Shown one piece after another: positions 1,002 through 14,435 of a stretch of 14,435 nt of DNA. Each line of letters begins with the position of its first letter. The first letter of the stretch is position 1. The DNA comes from a virus. The position numbers and the translations under genes were made by a program. The notes below the pieces were generated by a model. The model was given only the letters and a program-made list of their open reading frames with translations. It was not told the origin of the DNA and did no database searches. The stretch is taken from UHGV virus genome UHGV-0124609; one strand, given 5' to 3'.

Positions 1002-3242
1002 CTATTCTAAATCCTCCTCTGTCACCACCAGCATTTCATTCGGCTCATATATCGTCTTTGGTCTTAATCTGTCACCCATCTTTTCCGGTATCCGGTAGGT
1101 GCCCGGTATAACTTCACCGTTAACATCGCACCCTAACATCAACTCACCGTCTTTCAGCATCTTCTCGAGATGATGGTTGGTTATGGCGTGGTCGCCCGAA
1201 TTCGCCACTATCTGCCGTTGTGTAAAACCTCGTCCGGTGTCGTCTGACTGTTGCAGGTCCTCCAGCGCGGCAAGTATTGATTCCTTACGCCCTTCATCCT
1301 TTCCACGTTTTACAGCGTTCTTTACGTTTTCTTTACCTTCTTTCGTCAGCCCTTCTTCCCGCTCTTTCTCCTCGTCAGTTTTGAACGGCTCGAAACCCCA
1401 CGGCATCAGCACAAGCGCCTTGTGCGGCTCAGGCAGGTCCAGGTTTACGATTGTGCCGTATTCCTCTGTGCTACCCAGGAACTCAACCGCACGGTACTCT
1501 TTCGGCGGTGGTGCTTCACGGAACTGTACCGACTCCAGCACCATGCCAACCGTCTTCTGTTGAGGCCCGTGCTTAAATTTAGAGTGGTATACGTTTATCT
1601 GACGGTCGGTAGCGCGTTCAATTGTCAGTTCCACGTCAACGCCCGCATACAGCGCGCCGCTGCCACGGGCTTTCTTTCCGCCCTTCGGTGTGTGGTGAAC
1701 AACACCTACCGCGGCTTTAGTCGCATCACGCACTTCTTTCAGGATGGCGATAACTTTACCCATACCGATTGCCGTTGATGAACTGTTCTCGTCAAACTTA
1801 TCAATCGTCAGGGCCAGGGTCTGGTTGAGGGTGTCAAACGCGACCATGCCGATAGGTTCATCGCCAGCGGTTTCACGCATTAACTTAATCAGGTTTTTCA
1901 GTTTTCCGACTTCGCCCATGTCGATGACATGTACATAATCTTTACCTTCCTCTCCGTATTTAGCCGCGAGTGCATCAATACGTGTGCGGGTAGCCGCGCC
2001 ACCCTCACCGTCGATATAGAAATGGTGACAGCGCTGGGTATCCGCCCCTGCGAAGCGATAGCCAGCGGCGCTAAGGTACATCACCCCCAGCGTATAGAAT
2101 GATTTGTACGTGCCAGATTCTCCGACGATATCCCAGATACAATCCGACGGCATGTACCCTTCTACGACGAAATCAGCCTTTACCGGTTCTGGTAATTCGT
2201 CCTCCTCGAAGTCCTCGTCGTCTTCCAGGTCGTCCAGGCTGCATGAAACGGATTCACGCGCACCCCATCCGATAGCCTCAGCCACTTCACTAAACGGCAG
2301 CCCGGTCGCGTCGCACGCATACTTCCACACCTCTTTCGGTGACATGCCTTCGGTTGCCGTAATGTCGGTGTCGTGAATCATGGTTACGTTCGGTGCTTCG
2401 TAGCCCTCTCGCGGGAAACACAGCAGGAAGTCGTCCGGCCGCGGTGTCGGGTCGCTGTAGTTTTCCGCATGTTCTGGTGTGGCGGGCATCTTAAGGCCGC
2501 GAGGTGTCATGACACCGCCGTACTCAAAAGCCAGTGCCTCGAACGCGTCTGTAAACGCGGTGCGCAGTTCTTCCGGTATCTGGTAATCCGATGCGCTGCT
2601 CACCTCGTAATCCGGGATGCCTTCCAGTAACTCATCCGGGTCAATCAGGTCGTTGCGACGCGACCAGATAACCTGAGAGCCAACCGGCGGCAGGTACATC
2701 GGTTGGGACAGAGTAAACCCGCTGCGGTCAGCGCCCATGCCTTTGAAGAAGTGCTCCAGCAATCCATGACGAACACGGATGATGTCGCCACCCTCAACAG
2801 GACTGGCCAGCGGCATGACGACACGAAAGCGCGGAGACTCATCGGTATGGGATGCCGTGGTATATAGGCACATCGCCTGGCGGCTGCGCTTAACCAGGCG
2901 CACAGCTTCCTGATACTCTTCCGGCGTTGCACTGTCGAAGTCCAGATACGCCAGCGACGATTTGCTTACAGACGCATCACAGCGATAGAAGAAGCCTTTA
3001 CGCGCTTGCTTAAAGTCGCCGGTTTCCAGGTCTTTTACGGTGCTGTGAGTAGAGTCGCACGCGGCGGTGATATATCCCGGCGCGGTCTTCGGGTTAATCC
3101 CGTCTCGGACAGAATCGAGCGGCTGGATTAACTCTTTCAGGTCGTCCAGTGTTGCCGTGTGTGTAGTTCTGACGTTTATATCCTTTTTCTCTGCTCGCGC
3201 GTTGCGGCGTGACCACGAGTAGGATAAAATTACATCGGACAT
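1002..3242 (-). CDS. putative replication primase/helicase (N-terminal primase-polymerase-like region plus a RecA/DnaB-like P-loop NTPase region), 746 aa
   Basis: Long complete ORF; ATG (revcomp of 3240-3242) preceded by SD GAAGGA with an 8-nt spacer. Translation contains a P-loop-like motif IVGESGTYKSFYTLG and a Walker B-like hydrophobic stretch ending in D (GMVAFDTLNQ), an acidic linker (DDLEDDEDFEEDELPE) and an acidic C-terminus (…VVTEEDLE). Family assignment is from motif pattern only. Confidence 0.85.
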   Translation of the reverse strand: MSDVILSYSWSRRNARAEKKDINVRTTHTATLDDLKELIQPLDSVRDGINPKTAPGYITAACDSTHSTVKDLETGDFKQARKGFFYRCDASVSKSSLAYLDFDSATPEEYQEAVRLVKRSRQAMCLYTTASHTDESPRFRVVMPLASPVEGGDIIRVRHGLLEHFFKGMGADRSGFTLSQPMYLPPVGSQVIWSRRNDLIDPDELLEGIPDYEVSSASDYQIPEELRTAFTDAFEALAFEYGGVMTPRGLKMPATPEHAENYSDPTPRPDDFLLCFPREGYEAPNVTMIHDTDITATEGMSPKEVWKYACDATGLPFSEVAEAIGWGARESVSCSLDDLEDDEDFEEDELPEPVKADFVVEGYMPSDCIWDIVGESGTYKSFYTLGVMYLSAAGYRFAGADTQRCHHFYIDGEGGAATRTRIDALAAKYGEEGKDYVHVIDMGEVGKLKNLIKLMRETAGDEPIGMVAFDTLNQTLALTIDKFDENSSSTAIGMGKVIAILKEVRDATKAAVGVVHHTPKGGKKARGSGALYAGVDVELTIERATDRQINVYHSKFKHGPQQKTVGMVLESVQFREAPPPKEYRAVEFLGSTEEYGTIVNLDLPEPHKALVLMPWGFEPFKTDEEKEREEGLTKEGKENVKNAVKRGKDEGRKESILAALEDLQQSDDTGRGFTQRQIVANSGDHAITNHHLEKMLKDGELMLGCDVNGEVIPGTYRIPEKMGDRLRPKTIYEPNEMLVVTEEDLE

Positions 3243-3299: not shown

Positions 3300-3533
3300 T
3301 TATTCCAGGTCTTCTAAAGTAGCGGTCATTCCGCGAACTTCAGCGACAGCACTATATTTCCCGCCGACATTTTTCACGACACCGGATTTAACCAACACCT
3401 TCAATGACCCTTCAATGATGGCGGAACTATAGTACTTAAAATAACTGCGGCGCAAGTCGATAACACTGCACGACCCTTTTTTACGTGTTAATGAAACGAC
3501 CGCCGTAAATACGCGTGACTGGAACTCGGTCAT
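3300..3533 (-). CDS. hypothetical small protein (77 aa), possibly winged-helix DNA-binding; translationally coupled to the upstream AlpA-like gene
   Basis: Complete ORF whose start overlaps the stop of the upstream gene by 4 nt (ATGA). The assignment of a winged-helix fold is a weak guess from the pattern SLKVLVKSGVVKNVGGKYSAV. C-terminus …TATLEDLE resembles the primase C-terminus. Confidence 0.7.
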   Translation of the reverse strand: MTEFQSRVFTAVVSLTRKKGSCSVIDLRRSYFKYYSSAIIEGSLKVLVKSGVVKNVGGKYSAVAEVRGMTATLEDLE

Positions 3534-3700
3534 TTCACGTTCTCCTTAATCCACGCTTCCACTTTCTCCGGGTCAAACGTACCTGGCTGCCGGCGGCCCA
3601 TAATGCGGGTACAGCAATCAGGGAACTTCCCGCTCTTTAACCAGTTATTCAGCGTGCGACGAGTAACCCCGATGCGCTCTGCTACTTCATTCTGCGTCAT
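3530..3700 (-). CDS. AlpA-family-like HTH DNA-binding protein (phage transcriptional regulator/excisionase-like), 56 aa
   Basis: Translation MTQNEVAERIGVTRRTLNNWLKSGKFPDCCTRIMGRRQPGTFDPEKVEAWIKENVK matches the AlpA/HTH_17 pattern (HTH, then FP, then a conserved W). ATG at the revcomp of 3698-3700 has SD GAGGG with a 7-nt spacer; the ORF track's longer form starts at TTG 3727 with no SD. Confidence 0.8.
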   Translation of the reverse strand: MTQNEVAERIGVTRRTLNNWLKSGKFPDCCTRIMGRRQPGTFDPEKVEAWIKENVK

Positions 3701-3732
3701 TCTCAAACCCTCATTATCAGTTAACAAAATCG

Positions 3733-3761
3733 AGTATACATTGCGAATAATGGGAAATCAA
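3733..3761 (-). promoter_or_regulatory. sigma70-like promoter for the leftward AlpA/primase operon (TTGATT-N17-TATACT)
   Basis: On the minus strand, -35 TTGATT is the revcomp of 3756-3761 and -10 TATACT the revcomp of 3733-3738, with a 17-bp spacer; about 30 nt upstream of the ATG at 3700. Confidence 0.5.
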
Positions 3762-4041
3762 ACATAATCGCACCTATTGACATTATGAAAATCTTCGTTT
3801 AAGGTGCTTCTATATCTTAGTTACTTTGATTCTTGTTCACCTTGTAAACCCCGCCGAAAACGAGCGCCCAACGCGAAGTGTTAGGCGGCAGTTTACTGAA
3901 CATAAGAATTATCGTAACTTTCCTTCCTTAATATCTCCGGTTGCCCTGGGCAAGCTCTATTCTCATCGGCAGCATATCTCTTAAGTAACTGATTTTCTTA
4001 ATGTACCGTAGATTCACAACCGTAAAAATGTAACCCTTACC

Positions 4042-5610: not shown

Positions 5611-5872
5611 AAGATACACCGTTACCGTTGATTTTGAGGGGCTGGATTTGCCCCTCCCCAACAACTACCGGTATATAACCCGTGACCGTTTCGGGTTTAT
5701 TCAGGGGTGGCGTAACAAGCCGACAGACACTGAGTTCGGGATGTCGGGTGGTGAAGAGTTGCCGATCACGTTCGGGCACCAAAGTAGTAACGAAGAGCTT
5801 AAAACTGTGATTCGTAAGTATCGTCGCCGGGGTAAAACTGAACTTATCGCAATAACAGGCGCTGTTGAATAA
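5600..5872 (+). CDS. hypothetical protein, 90 aa
   Basis: ORF 5594-5872 in the track (TTG); the first ATG is at 5600 with a GGGG SD-like upstream. Confidence 0.75.
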   Translation: MNFRRYTVTVDFEGLDLPLPNNYRYITRDRFGFIQGWRNKPTDTEFGMSGGEELPITFGHQSSNEELKTVIRKYRRRGKTELIAITGAVE

Positions 5873-5891
5873 ACGAGAGGAGAGACGGAAG

Positions 5892-6320
5892 ATGAGTAAC
5901 AAAAACGAAGTATTCGAGTACCTGATTGACCAGCTACGGCAGCAGGTAAATAAGAAAGATGTGACATCTTTCAATGTATCTGTGCAGATATCCGACCTTG
6001 ATGAGGTCAAGCAGGTAGTCCACAACCTACAGCAGCATATCGCAGGTAAGGATGACGAAATACGTGCGCTGAAAGACAGTTTACGGCAGCAGGTAAATAA
6101 CAACCAGTGCGAAGACCTGGCGCATGAGGTGCAGTCACTTAAGAATCAGTTACGTGATGCGTCGGCGCTGGTGGCTGAGTTGCAGAAAGAACTTGATGTC
6201 GCGAATAGCACCGTAGCTCGTTTGAGTAAAGAGGGGGTACAGAGGTGCAACCATGTTTGGTACAGGTACAACTTAGGCGGCTACACTAAGATGTGCCTTA
6301 AATGCGGGCTAAAGAAATGA
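5892..6320 (+). CDS. coiled-coil protein with a C-terminal Cys/His cluster (putative zinc ribbon), 142 aa
   Basis: ATG 5892 preceded by AACGAGAGGAGAGACGGAAG (the track's longer form starts at TTG 5865 inside the previous gene). Translation is heptad-like and Q/L/K/E-rich, with a repeated LRQQVN segment and C-terminal CNHVWYRYNLGGYTKMCLKCG. Confidence 0.8.
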   Translation: MSNKNEVFEYLIDQLRQQVNKKDVTSFNVSVQISDLDEVKQVVHNLQQHIAGKDDEIRALKDSLRQQVNNNQCEDLAHEVQSLKNQLRDASALVAELQKELDVANSTVARLSKEGVQRCNHVWYRYNLGGYTKMCLKCGLKK

Positions 6321-6520
6321 CCAGCATCTTATTTATCTGGGTACTGGCCGCGGGCCATATGCACCTAGCGGCAACAGAAACGTTTTACTCGATGGAGGCG
6401 TGCCAGTCAGCGGCACGCGCCGCGGAGAACGCGCACTTTCTGTTTCAGGGTGACAAGCCCAACGATTCAGAGGTACGCGCTATCTGCTCACCTAAGCGAC
6501 TTAGCAAACAGGAGAAGTGA
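6302..6520 (+). CDS. small protein with an N-terminal hydrophobic segment (signal peptide or membrane anchor), 72 aa
   Basis: ORF in the track; N-terminus MRAKEMTSILFIWVLAAGHMHLAA has a positively charged n-region followed by a hydrophobic stretch. Alternative start ATG 6317 overlaps the upstream stop (ATGA). Confidence 0.7.
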   Translation: MRAKEMTSILFIWVLAAGHMHLAATETFYSMEACQSAARAAENAHFLFQGDKPNDSEVRAICSPKRLSKQEK

Positions 6521-7064: not shown

Positions 7065-7139
7065 ACCGTTATTAGGATAATTCCTACCCGTGGTATCCTC
7101 CAGTTACTGCATACTTAATACGCACCTGGAGGATTCATC

Positions 7140-7448
7140 TTGGATAAATTTACTGAAACAGTGACGGGGTGGCTTCTCGCTGCCGCACTAGCCGGAGGGG
7201 TAATCGGGCTACGACAACATAAGTCCGTTATTTCAGGCCCAATAGACGGCTTCTGCTTTATTGCAACAGGCTTCACCTGCGCCGTATTTGGTGCACCTCT
7301 TGCGGCCCAATGGTTTGGCATCACGGGCGACCGTGAAATCGCAGGCCTGGGCTTCATTATCGCTATTCTCTGGATGCCTATCTATTCCCGCCTTTCTGGC
7401 ATCGTCGCCGGAGAATACATCGCACGTCGAGGAGGCCCGGATGAATGA
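7140..7448 (+). CDS. holin-like membrane protein (three predicted TM segments, charged C-terminus), 102 aa, TTG start
   Basis: TTG 7140 with SD GGAGGA at 7128-7133 (6-nt spacer) and no in-frame ATG nearby. Hydrophobic segments WLLAAALAGGVIGL, FCFIATGFTCAVFGAPLAAQWFGI and IAGLGFIIAILWMPIY; lies immediately upstream of the endolysin. Confidence 0.7.
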   Translation: MDKFTETVTGWLLAAALAGGVIGLRQHKSVISGPIDGFCFIATGFTCAVFGAPLAAQWFGITGDREIAGLGFIIAILWMPIYSRLSGIVAGEYIARRGGPDE

Positions 7449-7713
7449 GTTATTCTGGTTCGGCGGTATGCTGGCAATCGGAGGCACATCGCTGTTTAAT
7501 GTATACCACTCCAGCGTTGACGACGGACTATTTGGTAGGGTGCTCTATATCCTGACCGCTATTGTCTGTGCCGCCGGATGTATCCACCTGTTACAGGGCA
7601 GCATGTCGCCCACGCTGCCAGAGACATTAATCACATTAGTTGCGCTGCGTCAGATTCGCCAGGCGTGGCTGGCATACGGAGGACATAAGCGTGTCTCGAA
7701 ACATTTCAGATAA
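7441..7713 (+). CDS. second holin-like/antiholin-like membrane protein (at least two TM segments), 90 aa
   Basis: ATG 7441 with SD GGAGG at 7431-7435 (5-nt spacer), overlapping the upstream stop (ATGAATGA). Hydrophobic segments LFWFGGMLAIGGTSLF and VLYILTAIVCAAGCIHLL; basic C-terminus. The track's 7261-7713 ORF is an upstream extension in another gene's coding region. Confidence 0.7.
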   Translation: MNELFWFGGMLAIGGTSLFNVYHSSVDDGLFGRVLYILTAIVCAAGCIHLLQGSMSPTLPETLITLVALRQIRQAWLAYGGHKRVSKHFR

Positions 7714-8179
7714 TGGGCTGCATTTCACCGCCGCATTTGAGGGGTTCCGGGGAACTGCGTATCGCGCTACGCCGAACGAAAAGTACCTGACTATCGGGTA
7801 CGGTCACTACGGCCCAGACGTAACACCCGGTAAGACCATCACACCGGGGCAGGGCCTCCTGTTACTGAATCGCGATATGGCTAAGGCCGTGGCTGCGGGT
7901 GATGCAGCAGCGCACCATTCGCTGACACAGGCGCAGTTCGACGCGGTGTGTGACCTGGTCTATAACGCGGGTGCTGGTGTGATTGGGGTTAATACTGGCA
8001 CGGGTAAGGCGCTGCGTTCTGGTGATATTGCGACGCTGCGTGCTAAGCTGGCGCTGTTTATCAACCAGAACGGCAAACCGCTACTAGGCCTGCGTCGCCG
8101 TACTGCGGGTCGGCTGGCGCTGTTCGACGGTAAACCGTGGCAGGAGGCTGAGGCTATTGGGCGCGCGGTGAAAGGTTGA
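7691..8179 (+). CDS. endolysin, phage lysozyme (GH24 / T4-lysozyme-like family), about 162 aa
   Basis: Translation contains the family hallmarks FEGFRGTAY and TIGYGHYG. GTG 7691 has SD GGAGG at 7678-7682 (8-nt spacer); the track's form starts at TTG 7640 with no SD. The gene overlaps the preceding holin-like gene by 23 nt. Confidence 0.9.
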   Translation: MSRNISDNGLHFTAAFEGFRGTAYRATPNEKYLTIGYGHYGPDVTPGKTITPGQGLLLLNRDMAKAVAAGDAAAHHSLTQAQFDAVCDLVYNAGAGVIGVNTGTGKALRSGDIATLRAKLALFINQNGKPLLGLRRRTAGRLALFDGKPWQEAEAIGRAVKG

Positions 8180-8245
8180 CACCTAAGACCAATCCGACGA
8201 TACTTAAATCACCTCCTGCTCCATCCCTCTGCTCTCCAGTTTTAT

Positions 8246-8277
8246 CCCGGCCCTGACCCAGCCGGGATTTTTTTTTA
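8246..8277 (+). terminator. strong rho-independent terminator after the lysis cassette
   Basis: Stem CCCGGC/GCCGGG at 8246-8251/8261-8266 with a 9-nt loop, followed by ATTTTTTTTTAT. Confidence 0.75.
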
Positions 8278-8298: not shown

Positions 8299-8328
8299 TT
8301 GACTATTACCTACGACCCTACTATATTT
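8299..8328 (+). promoter_or_regulatory. sigma70-like promoter (TTGACT-N18-TATATT) for the 8361-10328 block
   Basis: -35 TTGACT at 8299-8304, -10 TATATT at 8323-8328; the AACGAGA leader motif at 8339-8345 and ATG 8361 follow. Confidence 0.5.
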
Positions 8329-9084: not shown

Positions 9085-9384
9085 ATGAGTAGTAGCACAT
9101 TAGATAAAATTGAAAAAATGCAGGTCATCCTGCGAAATATGAAATCAGACATTAAGCGACAGGACCGGTTGAATTCAATAAACAGAATGGAACTAACTAC
9201 GAAGCAAGCGCAGAAGCGCAATGCTGAAGCGGCATGGATAGCAATGGAACAGATTAAGCGCCGTCATGAATTGCATGCCTTGTCTGTTGAGTTGGGGTTT
9301 GCAGAACGAAGGGATGATTATAGCGCAATAGAGTTAACTGACGGATGGCATTGCTTTACTTACAAACCAAGAGAGCCAGATTGA
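9085..9384 (+). CDS. hypothetical protein, 99 aa
   Basis: ATG 9085 with SD GGAGGA (CTGGAGGATTAACAAAAATG). Confidence 0.75.
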   Translation: MSSSTLDKIEKMQVILRNMKSDIKRQDRLNSINRMELTTKQAQKRNAEAAWIAMEQIKRRHELHALSVELGFAERRDDYSAIELTDGWHCFTYKPREPD

Positions 9385-9483: not shown

Positions 9484-9654
9484 ATGTTCAGTGACATCAA
9501 CGCAGCAATAGAAGAAGCAATCTGGCGTCGCTACAACGGCGAACAGCAACGGCACTTCTGCCTGGTGCAACGGGGTAACATGATTGCTGTAGTGCAGGAC
9601 CGCGACAACAAATATCCGAATGCGATGTGGACAACGAGGAATTTCTTAGGATGA
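9484..9654 (+). CDS. small hypothetical protein, 56 aa (not in the ORF track)
   Basis: ATG 9484 preceded by GGGGTGA; open to TGA at 9652-9654, which overlaps the next start (ATGA). Translation MFSDINAAIEEAIWRRYNGEQQRHFCLVQRGNMIAVVQDRDNKYPNAMWTTRNFLG. Confidence 0.5.
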   Translation: MFSDINAAIEEAIWRRYNGEQQRHFCLVQRGNMIAVVQDRDNKYPNAMWTTRNFLG

Positions 9655-9887
9655 TTACCAGCATCCCAAACCTGATTAAAGAATACGGCACGATGGCCGA
9701 GACATGCCGACAAACCGGCATCAACGAAATGACGATTGCGAAGTACAGCAAAGACGTGAATTGCGAGCGCCACGTAATTTATAACAACCGTCTTATGACG
9801 CACGTTAAGACAAGTCCGGTGTTATTCACGCGCCGTGGTATCACTAAAACTGAGCAACGCATTGCTAAAGAGGAGAGCGGGGGATGA
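9651..9887 (+). CDS. hypothetical protein with a possible helix-turn-helix segment, 78 aa
   Basis: ATG 9651 coupled to the upstream stop; the track's form starts at GTG 9627. The segment MAETCRQTGINEMTIAKY looks HTH-like; this is a weak inference. Confidence 0.7.
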   Translation: MITSIPNLIKEYGTMAETCRQTGINEMTIAKYSKDVNCERHVIYNNRLMTHVKTSPVLFTRRGITKTEQRIAKEESGG

Positions 9888-10066
9888 TTGATATTTTGAA
9901 AGTTACAAATGCCGTTGGCTGCCTGGTGTTTTGGTTGGCGTTTCTCGGTGTGCTGATAAAACAACCGACTTTGTTTAACAGTCTTCCTAGTTATCTGTGG
10001 TGGCCTATGTTTTTAGGCATGGTTGTATCAGGCGTGGCGGGCATCCTTTTGTGGTTTTTCAAATGA
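9884..10066 (+). CDS. small integral membrane protein (two predicted TM segments), 60 aa
   Basis: ATG 9884 overlaps the upstream stop (ATGA), with SD AGGAGAG upstream. Hydrophobic segments AVGCLVFWLAFLGVLI and YLWWPMFLGMVVSGVAGILLWFF. Confidence 0.7.
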   Translation: MIDILKVTNAVGCLVFWLAFLGVLIKQPTLFNSLPSYLWWPMFLGMVVSGVAGILLWFFK

Positions 10067-12259: not shown

Positions 12260-13741
12260 ATGTTAACTATGAACGGTCAGAATCAGGGTGTTAAGACCAA
12301 ACACCGGGAATGGCTGCATCACTTCGATAAATGGCAGAAGGTGCGACACGCCCTAGAGGGTGACCTTATTCGCTATCTCCGTAATGTTGGGAAGAACGAG
12401 CCTGACCCGGCCTACGCAGCACAGCGCCAGGAAGAATACGAGAACGGTGCTATTTGCTACAACTTCACTAAACGTACCCTGGCAGGGATGGTCGGTAGTG
12501 TCATGCGCAAAGACCCTGAGCAGATTATCCCACCTGAACTGGAGTACCTGTTACATAACGCTGATGGTTCCGGTGTCGGGCTGTGGCAGCACGCGCAGGA
12601 TACGCTGATGGAGATTGACTCAGTGGGTCGTGGCGGGTTGCTGGTGGACGCGCCGGAGACAGCCGCGGCAACTGCGGCAGAACAGAACGCAGGGTTATTA
12701 AACCCGGTCATCGCATTCTACACCGCAGAGAACATCATCAACTGGCGACTGACACGCATCGGTTCAGTTAACCGCGTGACGATGGTCGTGCTGCGTGAGG
12801 TATGGGAATACTCAGAACCGGGCGCAGAGTTCGAAACAAAGTTCGGCGAGCAATACCGTGTCCTTGACCTGATTGACGGTCGCTACCGTCAGCGCATTTA
12901 CCGCTTCGATGCCGAAGGTGGTGCTCAGGGTGGAGTAATCGAAATCTTCCCGAAACTAGGCGAACAGTTACGCGGCAAAATCCCGTTCACGTTCATTGGG
13001 GCGAGCAACAACGACGCCACTATCGACGATGCACCTTTGCTACCGTTGGCCGAGCTAAACATAGGGCACTTCAGAAATTCGGCTGATGTGGAAGAGGCCA
13101 GCTTTATAGTAGGCCAACCGACACTGTTCATTGCCCCCGGCGAGAATATGAGCATGGAGCAATGGAAAGAAGCCAACCCCCACGGCATCCGCATGGGGTC
13201 GCGTTCAGGGCATAACATCGGCTCCGGTGGCAATGCGTTTCTGGTTCAGGCGGCGGAAACTAACCTCGCCAAGCAGAACATGCTGGATAAAGAGAATCAG
13301 GCCATCCAGATTGGCGCGCAGCTTATTACTCCGACGCAGCAAATCACCGCAGAATCGGCCCGCCTGCAACGCGGCGCTGATACGTCAGTTATGGCGACAA
13401 TCGCACGTAACGTAAGCATGGCGTATACCGATGCATTGCGCTGGGTGGCTGCGATGCTTGGATTGCGCGAGGGAACAGAGATTGAGTTCAAACTGAACAT
13501 GGAGTTCTTCCTGCAGCCCATGACCGCTCAGGACCGTGCACAGTGGATGGCGGATATCAACGCTGGCCTGTTACCGGCTACTGCTTATTACGCGGCATTG
13601 CGTAAGGCGGGGGTGACTGACTGGACCGACGAGGATATCCAGAACGCTATCGAAGACGCGCCGCTGCCGTTAAGTGCTGTTACTCAGGTGGCAGGAGAGA
13701 TTCCGCAGTCGGCGCAGCAACAACAGGAAGCCGCCCAGTAG
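12260..13741 (+). CDS. putative portal protein, 493 aa
   Basis: Large ORF directly downstream of terL and upstream of a head-morphogenesis gene, which is the canonical order. ATG 12260 with SD AAGAGGA (7-nt spacer). The assignment rests on synteny and size; no specific motif was recognised. Confidence 0.7.
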   Translation: MLTMNGQNQGVKTKHREWLHHFDKWQKVRHALEGDLIRYLRNVGKNEPDPAYAAQRQEEYENGAICYNFTKRTLAGMVGSVMRKDPEQIIPPELEYLLHNADGSGVGLWQHAQDTLMEIDSVGRGGLLVDAPETAAATAAEQNAGLLNPVIAFYTAENIINWRLTRIGSVNRVTMVVLREVWEYSEPGAEFETKFGEQYRVLDLIDGRYRQRIYRFDAEGGAQGGVIEIFPKLGEQLRGKIPFTFIGASNNDATIDDAPLLPLAELNIGHFRNSADVEEASFIVGQPTLFIAPGENMSMEQWKEANPHGIRMGSRSGHNIGSGGNAFLVQAAETNLAKQNMLDKENQAIQIGAQLITPTQQITAESARLQRGADTSVMATIARNVSMAYTDALRWVAAMLGLREGTEIEFKLNMEFFLQPMTAQDRAQWMADINAGLLPATAYYAALRKAGVTDWTDEDIQNAIEDAPLPLSAVTQVAGEIPQSAQQQQEAAQ

Positions 13742-13813: not shown

Positions 13814-14435
13814 ATGAGCTTACTTACATCCCTAATCAGCCACCAGATTTGGCTGCAACGCACCGCATCCGGTGAAGTGAAAGACCTCGCACCGTTCATT
13901 AAGGAGATGCGGGACGAAATCAAACGGCAGGTGCTGCTGTTTGGTGACGACGGGCGCAGCACTGCGCGACTGAATAAACTGTTACGCGACCTCGAAGAAG
14001 CACTGACAGGACTTACTGGTGACTGGCAAACAAAGCTGACAGAAGACCTCAAGGAACTGGCGGCGTATGAGGCCGAGTGGAACGCAAAGACCCTTACCGC
14101 CAACGTGAATGCGGAATTTGTTACACCTACCGCCGAACAGGTGTGGGCTGCCGCTGAGTTTCAACCCTTATCGTTAAGCGACAAGCCTGTTGACTTCACG
14201 AAGCTGATGTCGGGCTGGGGCGAAACCGAAGTCGCGCGCCTTGTAACCGGCGTTAAGATGGGCTTTGTACAAGGCCAAACCACACGGCAGATTGTTAAGA
14301 ATGTCGTAGGCGCTGGTGGCCTGGCCGACATCTCTGAACGTAACGCTGCGACGGTAATCCGCACCGCGCTATCTCACGTGTCCAACGAAGCCCGTAACGA
14401 GACGTACCGCCAGAACGACGACATCATCGAGAAAT
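13814..14435 (+). CDS. head morphogenesis / minor head protein (Mu gpF-like or SPP1 gp7-like), partial, continuing past the window end
   Basis: Frame open from ATG 13814 to the window edge (207 codons); an in-frame alternative ATG lies at 13781. Position after the portal gene and the alpha-helical N-terminus are consistent with the gpF-like family; this is not motif-confirmed. Confidence 0.75.
   Translation, partial: MSLLTSLISHQIWLQRTASGEVKDLAPFIKEMRDEIKRQVLLFGDDGRSTARLNKLLRDLEEALTGLTGDWQTKLTEDLKELAAYEAEWNAKTLTANVNAEFVTPTAEQVWAAAEFQPLSLSDKPVDFTKLMSGWGETEVARLVTGVKMGFVQGQTTRQIVKNVVGAGGLADISERNAATVIRTALSHVSNEARNETYRQNDDIIEK

Follow-up and report, generated by a model that had tools for sequence, protein, structure and literature searches.

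The lysis genes of phage lambda (S105/S107, R and Rz/Rz1) are a natural point of departure for describing the locus considered here, which, as far as roles can be predicted, shares with them a holin with antiholin control, a cytoplasmic endolysin and a two-component spanin, together with the class I-like topology of a protein with three transmembrane domains (TMDs), the product of the first lysis gene (gene 1). The differences are substantial, however: the putative antiholin has a gene to itself here, whereas in lambda it arises from a dual-start gene; in place of lambda's transglycosylase there is a GH24 muramidase; and the spanin genes of the relatives are overlapped, unlinked, and ~8 kb away, whereas those of lambda are embedded. 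Another system to be considered is that of T4 (t, e, and pseT.3/pseT.2), which provides a precedent for unclustered lysis genes, a property that Kongari et al. (2018) attributed to T4-like phages (PMC6139136). The T4 proteins are nevertheless unrelated to those described here, the T4 holin having a single TMD and the T4 antiholins, RI and RIII, acting quite differently.

The closest described systems are those of Schulenberg (MK931438; PMC6763661), Shashou (GenBank MK931440), and Golestan (PMC7203180). The description of Schulenberg reports a holin/antiholin pair and an endolysin that are genetically separate from overlapping spanins (PMC6763661), and in Golestan, the holins are ORF66/67, the endolysin is ORF68, and the spanins are ORF7/8 (PMC7203180). 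In the record of Shashou, the gene at the position of gene 1 is 309 nt long, starts with TTG, and is labelled "holin/antiholin class I, 3 TMD, N-out C-in" (a TMHMM topology); the gene at the position of the second lysis gene (gene 2) encodes 93 aa and is labelled "antiholin/holin class II, 2 TMD" (TMHMM finds two TMDs); and a terminator feature follows the endolysin gene (MK931440). The spanins of such phages belong to the overlapped family that Kongari et al. defined as "Jersey" and that includes those of K1G, K1H, and K1ind1-3 (PMC6139136); this family is carried by all the complete relatives of the DNA studied here.

That DNA, hereafter the window, is the whole of a 14,435-bp metagenome contig (ENA ERZ1311641 NODE_877_length_14435). 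Its lysis genes have the same order, sizes, and start codons as those of Shashou, Schulenberg, and Golestan, and are likewise followed by a terminator after the endolysin gene, with only point differences from these three phages, in which the spanins are encoded elsewhere, amid the head genes. Shashou and some others have, just upstream of the holin, a gene for an HslV-like protease, which the contig does not have. The layout of a lysis cassette with distal spanins is, in other words, already known, having been published for Schulenberg and annotated in GenBank for Shashou, and it is therefore an ordinary, previously described feature. A Jersey-family pair is not present in the window, which ends upstream of the place where it would be expected (see below, "The distal spanin locus").

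The contig and its lysis cassette

By megablast, the window belongs with Kagunavirus (Guernseyvirinae), siphophages that infect E. coli and Salmonella and that make up a very common group, often put forward for use in phage therapy and biocontrol. Nucleotide identity is ~88-91% across 74-82% of the window in comparisons with CR01, BUCT825, Ro145clw, XY1, and other Kagunavirus genomes, and synteny with these genomes extends from the primase-helicase to the portal. The genes of the window succeed one another as primase-helicase (on the minus strand), small plus-strand genes, lysis cassette, small genes, terminase, portal, and the start of head morphogenesis. By this identity and synteny, the window is part of the genome of a Kagunavirus (Guernseyvirinae) phage. 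Over the lysis cassette, nucleotide identity is ~91% with XY1 and ~90-92% with other close relatives such as Bas74, and the three lysis proteins are 94-97% identical to their counterparts in Bas74, CR01, and Ro145clw. The features on which the analysis bears are collected in Table 1.

Table 1. Coordinates of the lysis cassette, its signals, and neighbouring features in the window
Feature	Position	Strand	Description
Shine-Dalgarno of gene 1	7128..7133	+	GGAGGA, 6 nt before the TTG; read from the sequence
Gene 1, holin-like	TTG 7140 to TGA 7448	+	102 aa; three hydrophobic helices, class I-like
Shine-Dalgarno of gene 2	7429-7435	+	GAGGAGG, 5 nt upstream of the ATG
Gene 2, holin-like	ATG 7441 to TAA 7713	+	90 aa; overlaps gene 1 by 8 nt (ATGAATGA)
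Shine-Dalgarno of endolysin	7678-7683	+	GGAGGA, 7 nt upstream of the GTG
Endolysin, GH24 muramidase	GTG 7691 to TGA 8179	+	162 aa, soluble; overlaps gene 2 by 23 nt
Intrinsic terminator at the end of the cassette	8244..8276	+	stem 8244-8251/8261-8268, 9-nt loop, nine T at 8268-8276
Sigma-70-like promoter match	8299..8327	+	TTGACT, 17 nt, TATATT; 10/12 consensus positions; just 3' of the terminator
Head-morphogenesis gene (Mu F-like)	13814..14435	+	phrog_241, E = 1.7e-77; interrupted by the contig end

An earlier note on this DNA had read the cassette as two membrane proteins and a lysozyme, and comparison with protein families bears this out: gene 1 falls in phrog_2359 ("holin", E = 3.8e-29), gene 2 in phrog_2508 ("holin", E = 5.1e-33), and the endolysin matches PF00959 over residues 15-138 with 88.2 bits (cut-off 22.3). 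Searches of Pfam and NCBIfam with the proteins of gene 1 and gene 2 returned no family match for either. The two genes occur together ahead of the endolysin gene in 41 Kagunavirus-like loci, gene 2 being much diverged in Jerseyvirus-like loci, and the gene order is kept throughout the subfamily, where the holins fall to 22-40% identity and the endolysin is still ~76% identical. Taken with the distal spanins of the relatives, we consider it very probable (about 0.9) that this cassette represents the first, conserved half of a Kagunavirus siphophage's split lysis system.

The endolysin is the best characterized of the three proteins through its homologues. It is ~92% identical to the engineered protein of the crystal structure 8HP8 in the PDB, "Endolysin mtEC340M" (E = 1.5e-95), whose parent, EC340 from the E. 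coli phage PBEC131, has 162 aa and is active in a zymogram (PMC8886149). With EC340 and mtEC340M it shares the format of a 162-aa single-domain PF00959 muramidase and the N-terminus VSRNIS...; it differs from mtEC340M, which itself contains seven designed changes, by ~13 substitutions. An alignment with the PDB homologues matches the conserved FEG motif, with Glu17, and the TIG motif, with Thr34, and the position of the homologues' "DD" is occupied in it by Arg25-Ala26, inside a loop that is two residues longer and that contains Glu30. A search for a SAR or signal sequence in the endolysin found none, there being no 17-aa window with a mean Kyte-Doolittle hydropathy of 1.3. Having no hydrophobic N-terminus, the endolysin is classed as cytoplasmic and holin-dependent and not as a SAR endolysin.

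Start codons, overlaps, and the terminator

The starts given in Table 1 for gene 1, gene 2, and the endolysin, along with the overlaps between the genes, are those that had been proposed in the earlier note; every coordinate was recovered, and the same three starts are chosen by independent gene callers and in GenBank records. The start columns of the relatives agree. In an alignment of 60 of them, the codon at the start of gene 1 is TTG in 35, which are Kagunavirus-like, and ATG or GTG in ~16 that are more distant and in which the start is still visible; the block around this start, ACCTGGAGGATTCATCTTG, is identical in 33 of the 60. In the endolysin column of the same alignment, GTG is found in 38 relatives and ATG in ~20 more distant ones. 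Such an interchange of TTG, GTG, and ATG at a single column is the pattern expected of a real start. For the endolysin, moreover, a non-ATG start is unavoidable, since no ATG occurs in frame before a point well within the Pfam lysozyme domain, past the FEG motif.

A more ambitious proposal of the earlier note was that weak starts and overlaps tune the stoichiometry of the lysis proteins. What speaks for it is the enrichment of non-ATG starts among lysis genes: gene 1 and the endolysin are the only genes with such starts among the 26 called on the contig (hypergeometric p ~0.009), and three of the eight found among the 77 CDS of the curated Shashou genome belong to the class I holin, the endolysin, and the o-spanin (p ~0.007). 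More generally, in Kagunavirus, these three of the five lysis genes begin with TTG or GTG behind strong Shine-Dalgarno sites, whereas ~93% of the other genes begin with ATG. What speaks against it is that Jerseyvirus-like relatives use ATG or GTG and that the overlap between gene 2 and the endolysin has been lost in several relatives to insertions, which include an HNH homing endonuclease. Such tuning of the stoichiometry is weakly supported. Translation of the holin and the endolysin is probably reduced by their weak TTG and GTG starts, an effect that is not conserved across the subfamily. It is rather unlikely that the non-ATG starts of the Kagunavirus lysis genes constitute a translational throttle, selected for the timing of lysis and for the relative amounts of the proteins, which would then have been lost or compensated in the Jerseyvirus branch.

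The terminator that had been claimed to follow the cassette is confirmed by folding and by conservation. The 8-bp stem contains six G-C pairs, and the hairpin has a folding energy of -13.8 kcal/mol (z = -3.5) that none of 200 shuffled sequences equals; it is kept in the relatives, some of which have altered stem sequences that still pair. A consensus scan missed this terminator because the loop limit of the scan was 8 nt, one less than the loop found here. The promoter match beyond it may correspond to a site where transcription restarts for the downstream small genes and the packaging genes; this candidate is a match to the consensus only, and such sites are not more numerous in the region than is expected from shuffled sequences.

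Predicted roles of the two membrane proteins

The hydropathy of the gene 1 product has peaks at residues ~8-24, 38-54, and 67-83, and its AlphaFold2 model has helices at 3-29, 34-62, and 65-97. In the gene 2 product, hydropathy reveals one strong TMD (~30-52) and a weak, glycine-rich N-terminal helix (~4-22), and the model has helices at 2-25, 30-53, and 59-85, the third of which is amphipathic and ends in the basic tail GGHKRVSKHFR. Both models were made from single sequences with low confidence (pLDDT 62-65) and were used for helix boundaries only. With its 102 aa, three TMDs, charged C-terminus, and location two genes upstream of the endolysin, the gene 1 product has the sequence characteristics of a class I holin; the charged tail in question, EYIARRGGPDE, is net acidic rather than net basic.

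Three genes, apparently coupled in translation and followed by an intrinsic terminator, thus encode a pair of small membrane proteins and a soluble muramidase of family GH24. How such a cassette might work can be proposed as follows. The muramidase, since it has no export signal, would be expected to build up in the cytoplasm until the three-TMD product of gene 1, acting as a canonical large-hole holin, freed it at a programmed time. The product of gene 2 would modulate this timing as an antiholin or as a co-holin, and the outer membrane would finally be disrupted by distal spanins of the Jersey family, encoded outside the contig. That gene 1 is the holin is a prediction towards which we lean somewhat; a search of the literature found no experimental test of the holin or the antiholin of this family.

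It is also quite possible that the roles are reversed, the gene 2 product forming the holes and the three-TMD product of gene 1 acting as the antiholin. Holins typically carry a basic tail on the cytoplasmic side, and the tail of gene 2 is basic and that of gene 1 is not, which would fit gene 2 as the holin. The CPT annotators of Shashou, for their part, deliberately kept both options in the labels "holin/antiholin class I" and "antiholin/holin class II" (MK931440). This reversal has to contend with the solubility of the endolysin, which implies the need for a large-hole holin, and with the first helix of gene 2, which is only weakly hydrophobic. S68 of phage 21, which of the two-TMD holins with a weak, glycine-rich first TMD has been studied best, makes pinholes that cannot release a soluble endolysin.

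Two-component holins have been described for some Bacillus and mycobacteriophage cassettes, and the products of gene 1 and gene 2 might likewise be obligate partners, neither of which is an inhibitor. The two genes are indeed always paired, in the same order and directly upstream of the endolysin, even where identity is as low as 22-40%, and their 8-nt overlap suggests that their translation is coupled; a holin/antiholin pair, however, would be expected to show just as conserved a linkage, and we regard an obligate partnership as unlikely. The two-helix layout of gene 2, with its glycine-rich first helix, could also call to mind a pinholin working with a SAR endolysin, a system that would be less dependent on a large-hole holin. 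This idea is scarcely credible: the endolysin, as translated from its GTG, has no hydrophobic segment at its N-terminus, nor is the in-frame extension from TTG 7640 (MRCVRFARRGWHTEDIS...) hydrophobic, and it is for want of such a segment that a pinholin/SAR system is rejected here.

The distal spanin locus

The earlier note had remarked that no Rz/Rz1-like pair is present in the window, and none was found by a lipobox scan or by tblastn. The scan, made in six frames over the window, yielded no credible spanin and only two implausible ORFs, at 12498-12608 (plus strand, embedded in the portal gene) and at 8434-8327 (minus strand); both are 35-36 aa long and resemble no known spanin, and each was rejected because of a poor signal region and the lack of a partner with an N-terminal TMD. 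A 60-aa protein with two TMDs (9884-10066, "AVGC"), assigned to a PHROG family of unknown function, was considered as a unimolecular spanin and rejected because its n- and h-regions are too weak and a periplasmic domain is missing. A tblastn search with the i- and o-spanins of relatives gave no match in the window or in its sibling contigs, and the other small ORFs of the window have no lysis-related PHROG match.

The same kind of search readily finds both spanins in CR01, Ro145clw, XY1, and Bas74. In Bas74, the i-spanin (L001:5486-5872) consists of an N-terminal TMD followed by a glutamine-rich helical periplasmic domain, and the o-spanin (L001:5718-5981, from GTG 5718 in the +1 frame) reads MKSLSTLKRLVAACALLTLSAC, which is followed by a proline-rich stretch; the ORF of the o-spanin runs past the stop of the i-spanin, which is the overlapped architecture. 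The relatives' spanins, which have 128 aa in the case of the i-spanin and 87 aa in that of the lipobox o-spanin, with a 155-nt overlap between their genes, match Rz-like families of PHROG (E = 4.8e-57 and 4.1e-31). An overlapping lipobox ORF is present at all of 47 i-spanin loci, and 644 phage records contain a recognizable o-spanin.

The position of this pair is as regular as its structure. It begins 1.9-2.6 kb past the portal stop in CR01, Ro145clw, XY1, Bas74, and Shashou, and the order in the relatives is head morphogenesis, an Ig-like decoration gene, variable small genes, i-spanin/o-spanin, and scaffold. Among the IMG/VR contigs of >=40 kb whose endolysin is >=86% identical to that of the window, the i-spanin lies 7.6-10 kb downstream, on the same strand, in 28 out of 28. 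The 3' end of the window, in comparison, lies 694 nt past the portal stop and ~6.5 kb past the midpoint of the endolysin gene, so that the corresponding locus would fall beyond it; the head-morphogenesis gene that is interrupted there likewise indicates that the window stops upstream of the position of the relatives' pair. Sibling contigs with an identical second holin, L004/L089 (28 kb, and with an identical portal too) and L091, both end before the spanin locus, as does L006, which came from the look-up of identical portals and second holins. In view of the constant position in the 28 relatives, the absence of spanins from the window most likely reflects where the contig ends.

The earlier note had allowed that the spanins might be elsewhere in the genome, and this fits all the complete relatives, which have the pair at a distance. 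Two of its other suggestions have fared less well. The layout, which it called unusual, is a conserved and published arrangement in the Guernseyvirinae (PMC6763661; PMC6139136; MK931440), and the replacement of spanins by another mechanism finds no support, every complete close relative examined having a spanin pair. One could imagine a phage that truly had no spanins and that breached the outer membrane otherwise, for example, with a cationic "disruptin" like gp28 of phiKT or through a membrane activity associated with the endolysin. There is indeed no spanin in the 14.4 kb available, and phages of this kind exist, ~15% having no spanin gene according to a passage in a preprint (bioRxiv 10.1101/515445). 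We nevertheless judge this very improbable here, given that the contig ends before the syntenic locus, that the pair is found in every complete close relative examined, that the small ORFs of the window offer no lysis-related PHROG match that might stand in for it, and that Kongari et al. (2018) counted the Guernseyvirinae among the spanin-bearing phages and not among the spanin-less ones (PMC6139136). A distal pair of the Jersey family outside the contig remains the preferred reading. More broadly, the call of a "missing spanin" on a partial contig can simply mirror the end of an assembly, and the case has little wider import beyond correct annotation.

Annotation of the o-spanin gene is itself variable: many GenBank records of Kagunavirus-type phages give this protein as a truncation of 47-48 aa that does not include the lipobox.

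Junction insertions and start codons in the lysis cassette

The boundary between holin-2 and the endolysin is interrupted in some relatives, in which either a gene for an HNH-type homing endonuclease or else a small ORF sits precisely at this junction. In L065, one of the relatives compared, the opening codons of the endolysin (VSRNISDNE...) remain joined to the inserted DNA, with an ATG serving as the new endolysin start; comparable extra DNA is present in Bas74 and in five other loci (see the table). It follows that the 23-nt overlap between holin-2 and the endolysin is dispensable.

Non-ATG starts are enriched in the lysis genes, both in the window, where they occur in two of the three lysis genes versus none of the other 23 genes, and in the curated genome of Shashou (3/5 versus 5/72). 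In residues 17–39 of the endolysin, the glutamate of the FEG motif and the threonine of the TIG motif are retained, while Arg-Ala occupies the position at which PDB homologues show "DD", in a loop that is two residues longer and includes Glu30. The orthologous endolysin EC340 is active nonetheless.

The region preceding the spanins

The region extending from the portal and head-decoration genes to the spanins is variable among the relatives compared: depending on the relative, its minus strand carries a gene for an N6/N4 methyltransferase or for a sliding-clamp-like protein, or else small ORFs. The window, L004/L089, and L091 are three metagenome contigs that end before or within this variable spot, and a fourth, L006, likewise terminates ahead of the spanins. 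That the spanins were never assembled together with the cassette may be explained by where these contigs break off.

In several GenBank records, the o-spanin is given as a protein of 47–48 aa starting at an internal ATG (MQPPCKLAQ...), a version with neither signal peptide nor lipobox. The full ORF encodes 87 aa (MKSLSTLKRLVAACALLTLSAC...), and its start codon is a GTG located 120 nt before the annotated ATG; this GTG, which is also the start used in the curated Shashou record, is common to 35 of the 45 loci scored.

Genes flanking the cassette

Downstream of the cassette terminator lie a predicted N-like antiterminator gene and a NinH-like gene. The former is encoded beside this terminator, a strong one, and beside a site resembling a promoter, which hints that the late genes are under antitermination control. 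A conserved 60-aa protein encoded directly upstream of the terminase genes is not spanin-like. Around 0.6 kb upstream of the cassette, a 67-aa protein has a signal-peptide-like N-terminus (MTSILFIWVLAAGHMHLAA...) and lacks a lipobox.

Coordinates of the features discussed
Feature	Source	Coordinates	Remark
Junction insert	L065	1121-1510	
Extra junction DNA	Bas74 (L001)	40332-40436	
Extra junction DNA	L025, L037, L057, L058, L063		
Variable spot	L004/L089	18100-18885	minus strand
Variable spot	L091	6322-7074; 8693-9693	minus strand
Variable spot	Shashou (L088)	3357-3878	minus strand
o-spanin	Bas74 (L001)	5718-5981	
o-spanin	XY1 (L003)	2868-3014	
o-spanin	Ro145clw (L087)	41397-41543	
Non-ATG lysis starts	window	7140; 7691	
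Non-ATG lysis starts	Shashou (L088)	6058; 41160; 41720	
Endolysin	window	7691-8179	
Promoter-like site	window	8299-8327	
N-like antiterminator	window	9085-9384	precomputed Pfam match, PF26859 (Phage_N_antitermin)
NinH-like gene	window	9651-9887	
60-aa protein	window	9884-10066	two hydrophobic helices; phrog_10956, unknown function
67-aa protein	window	6317-6520	phrog_3766, unknown function
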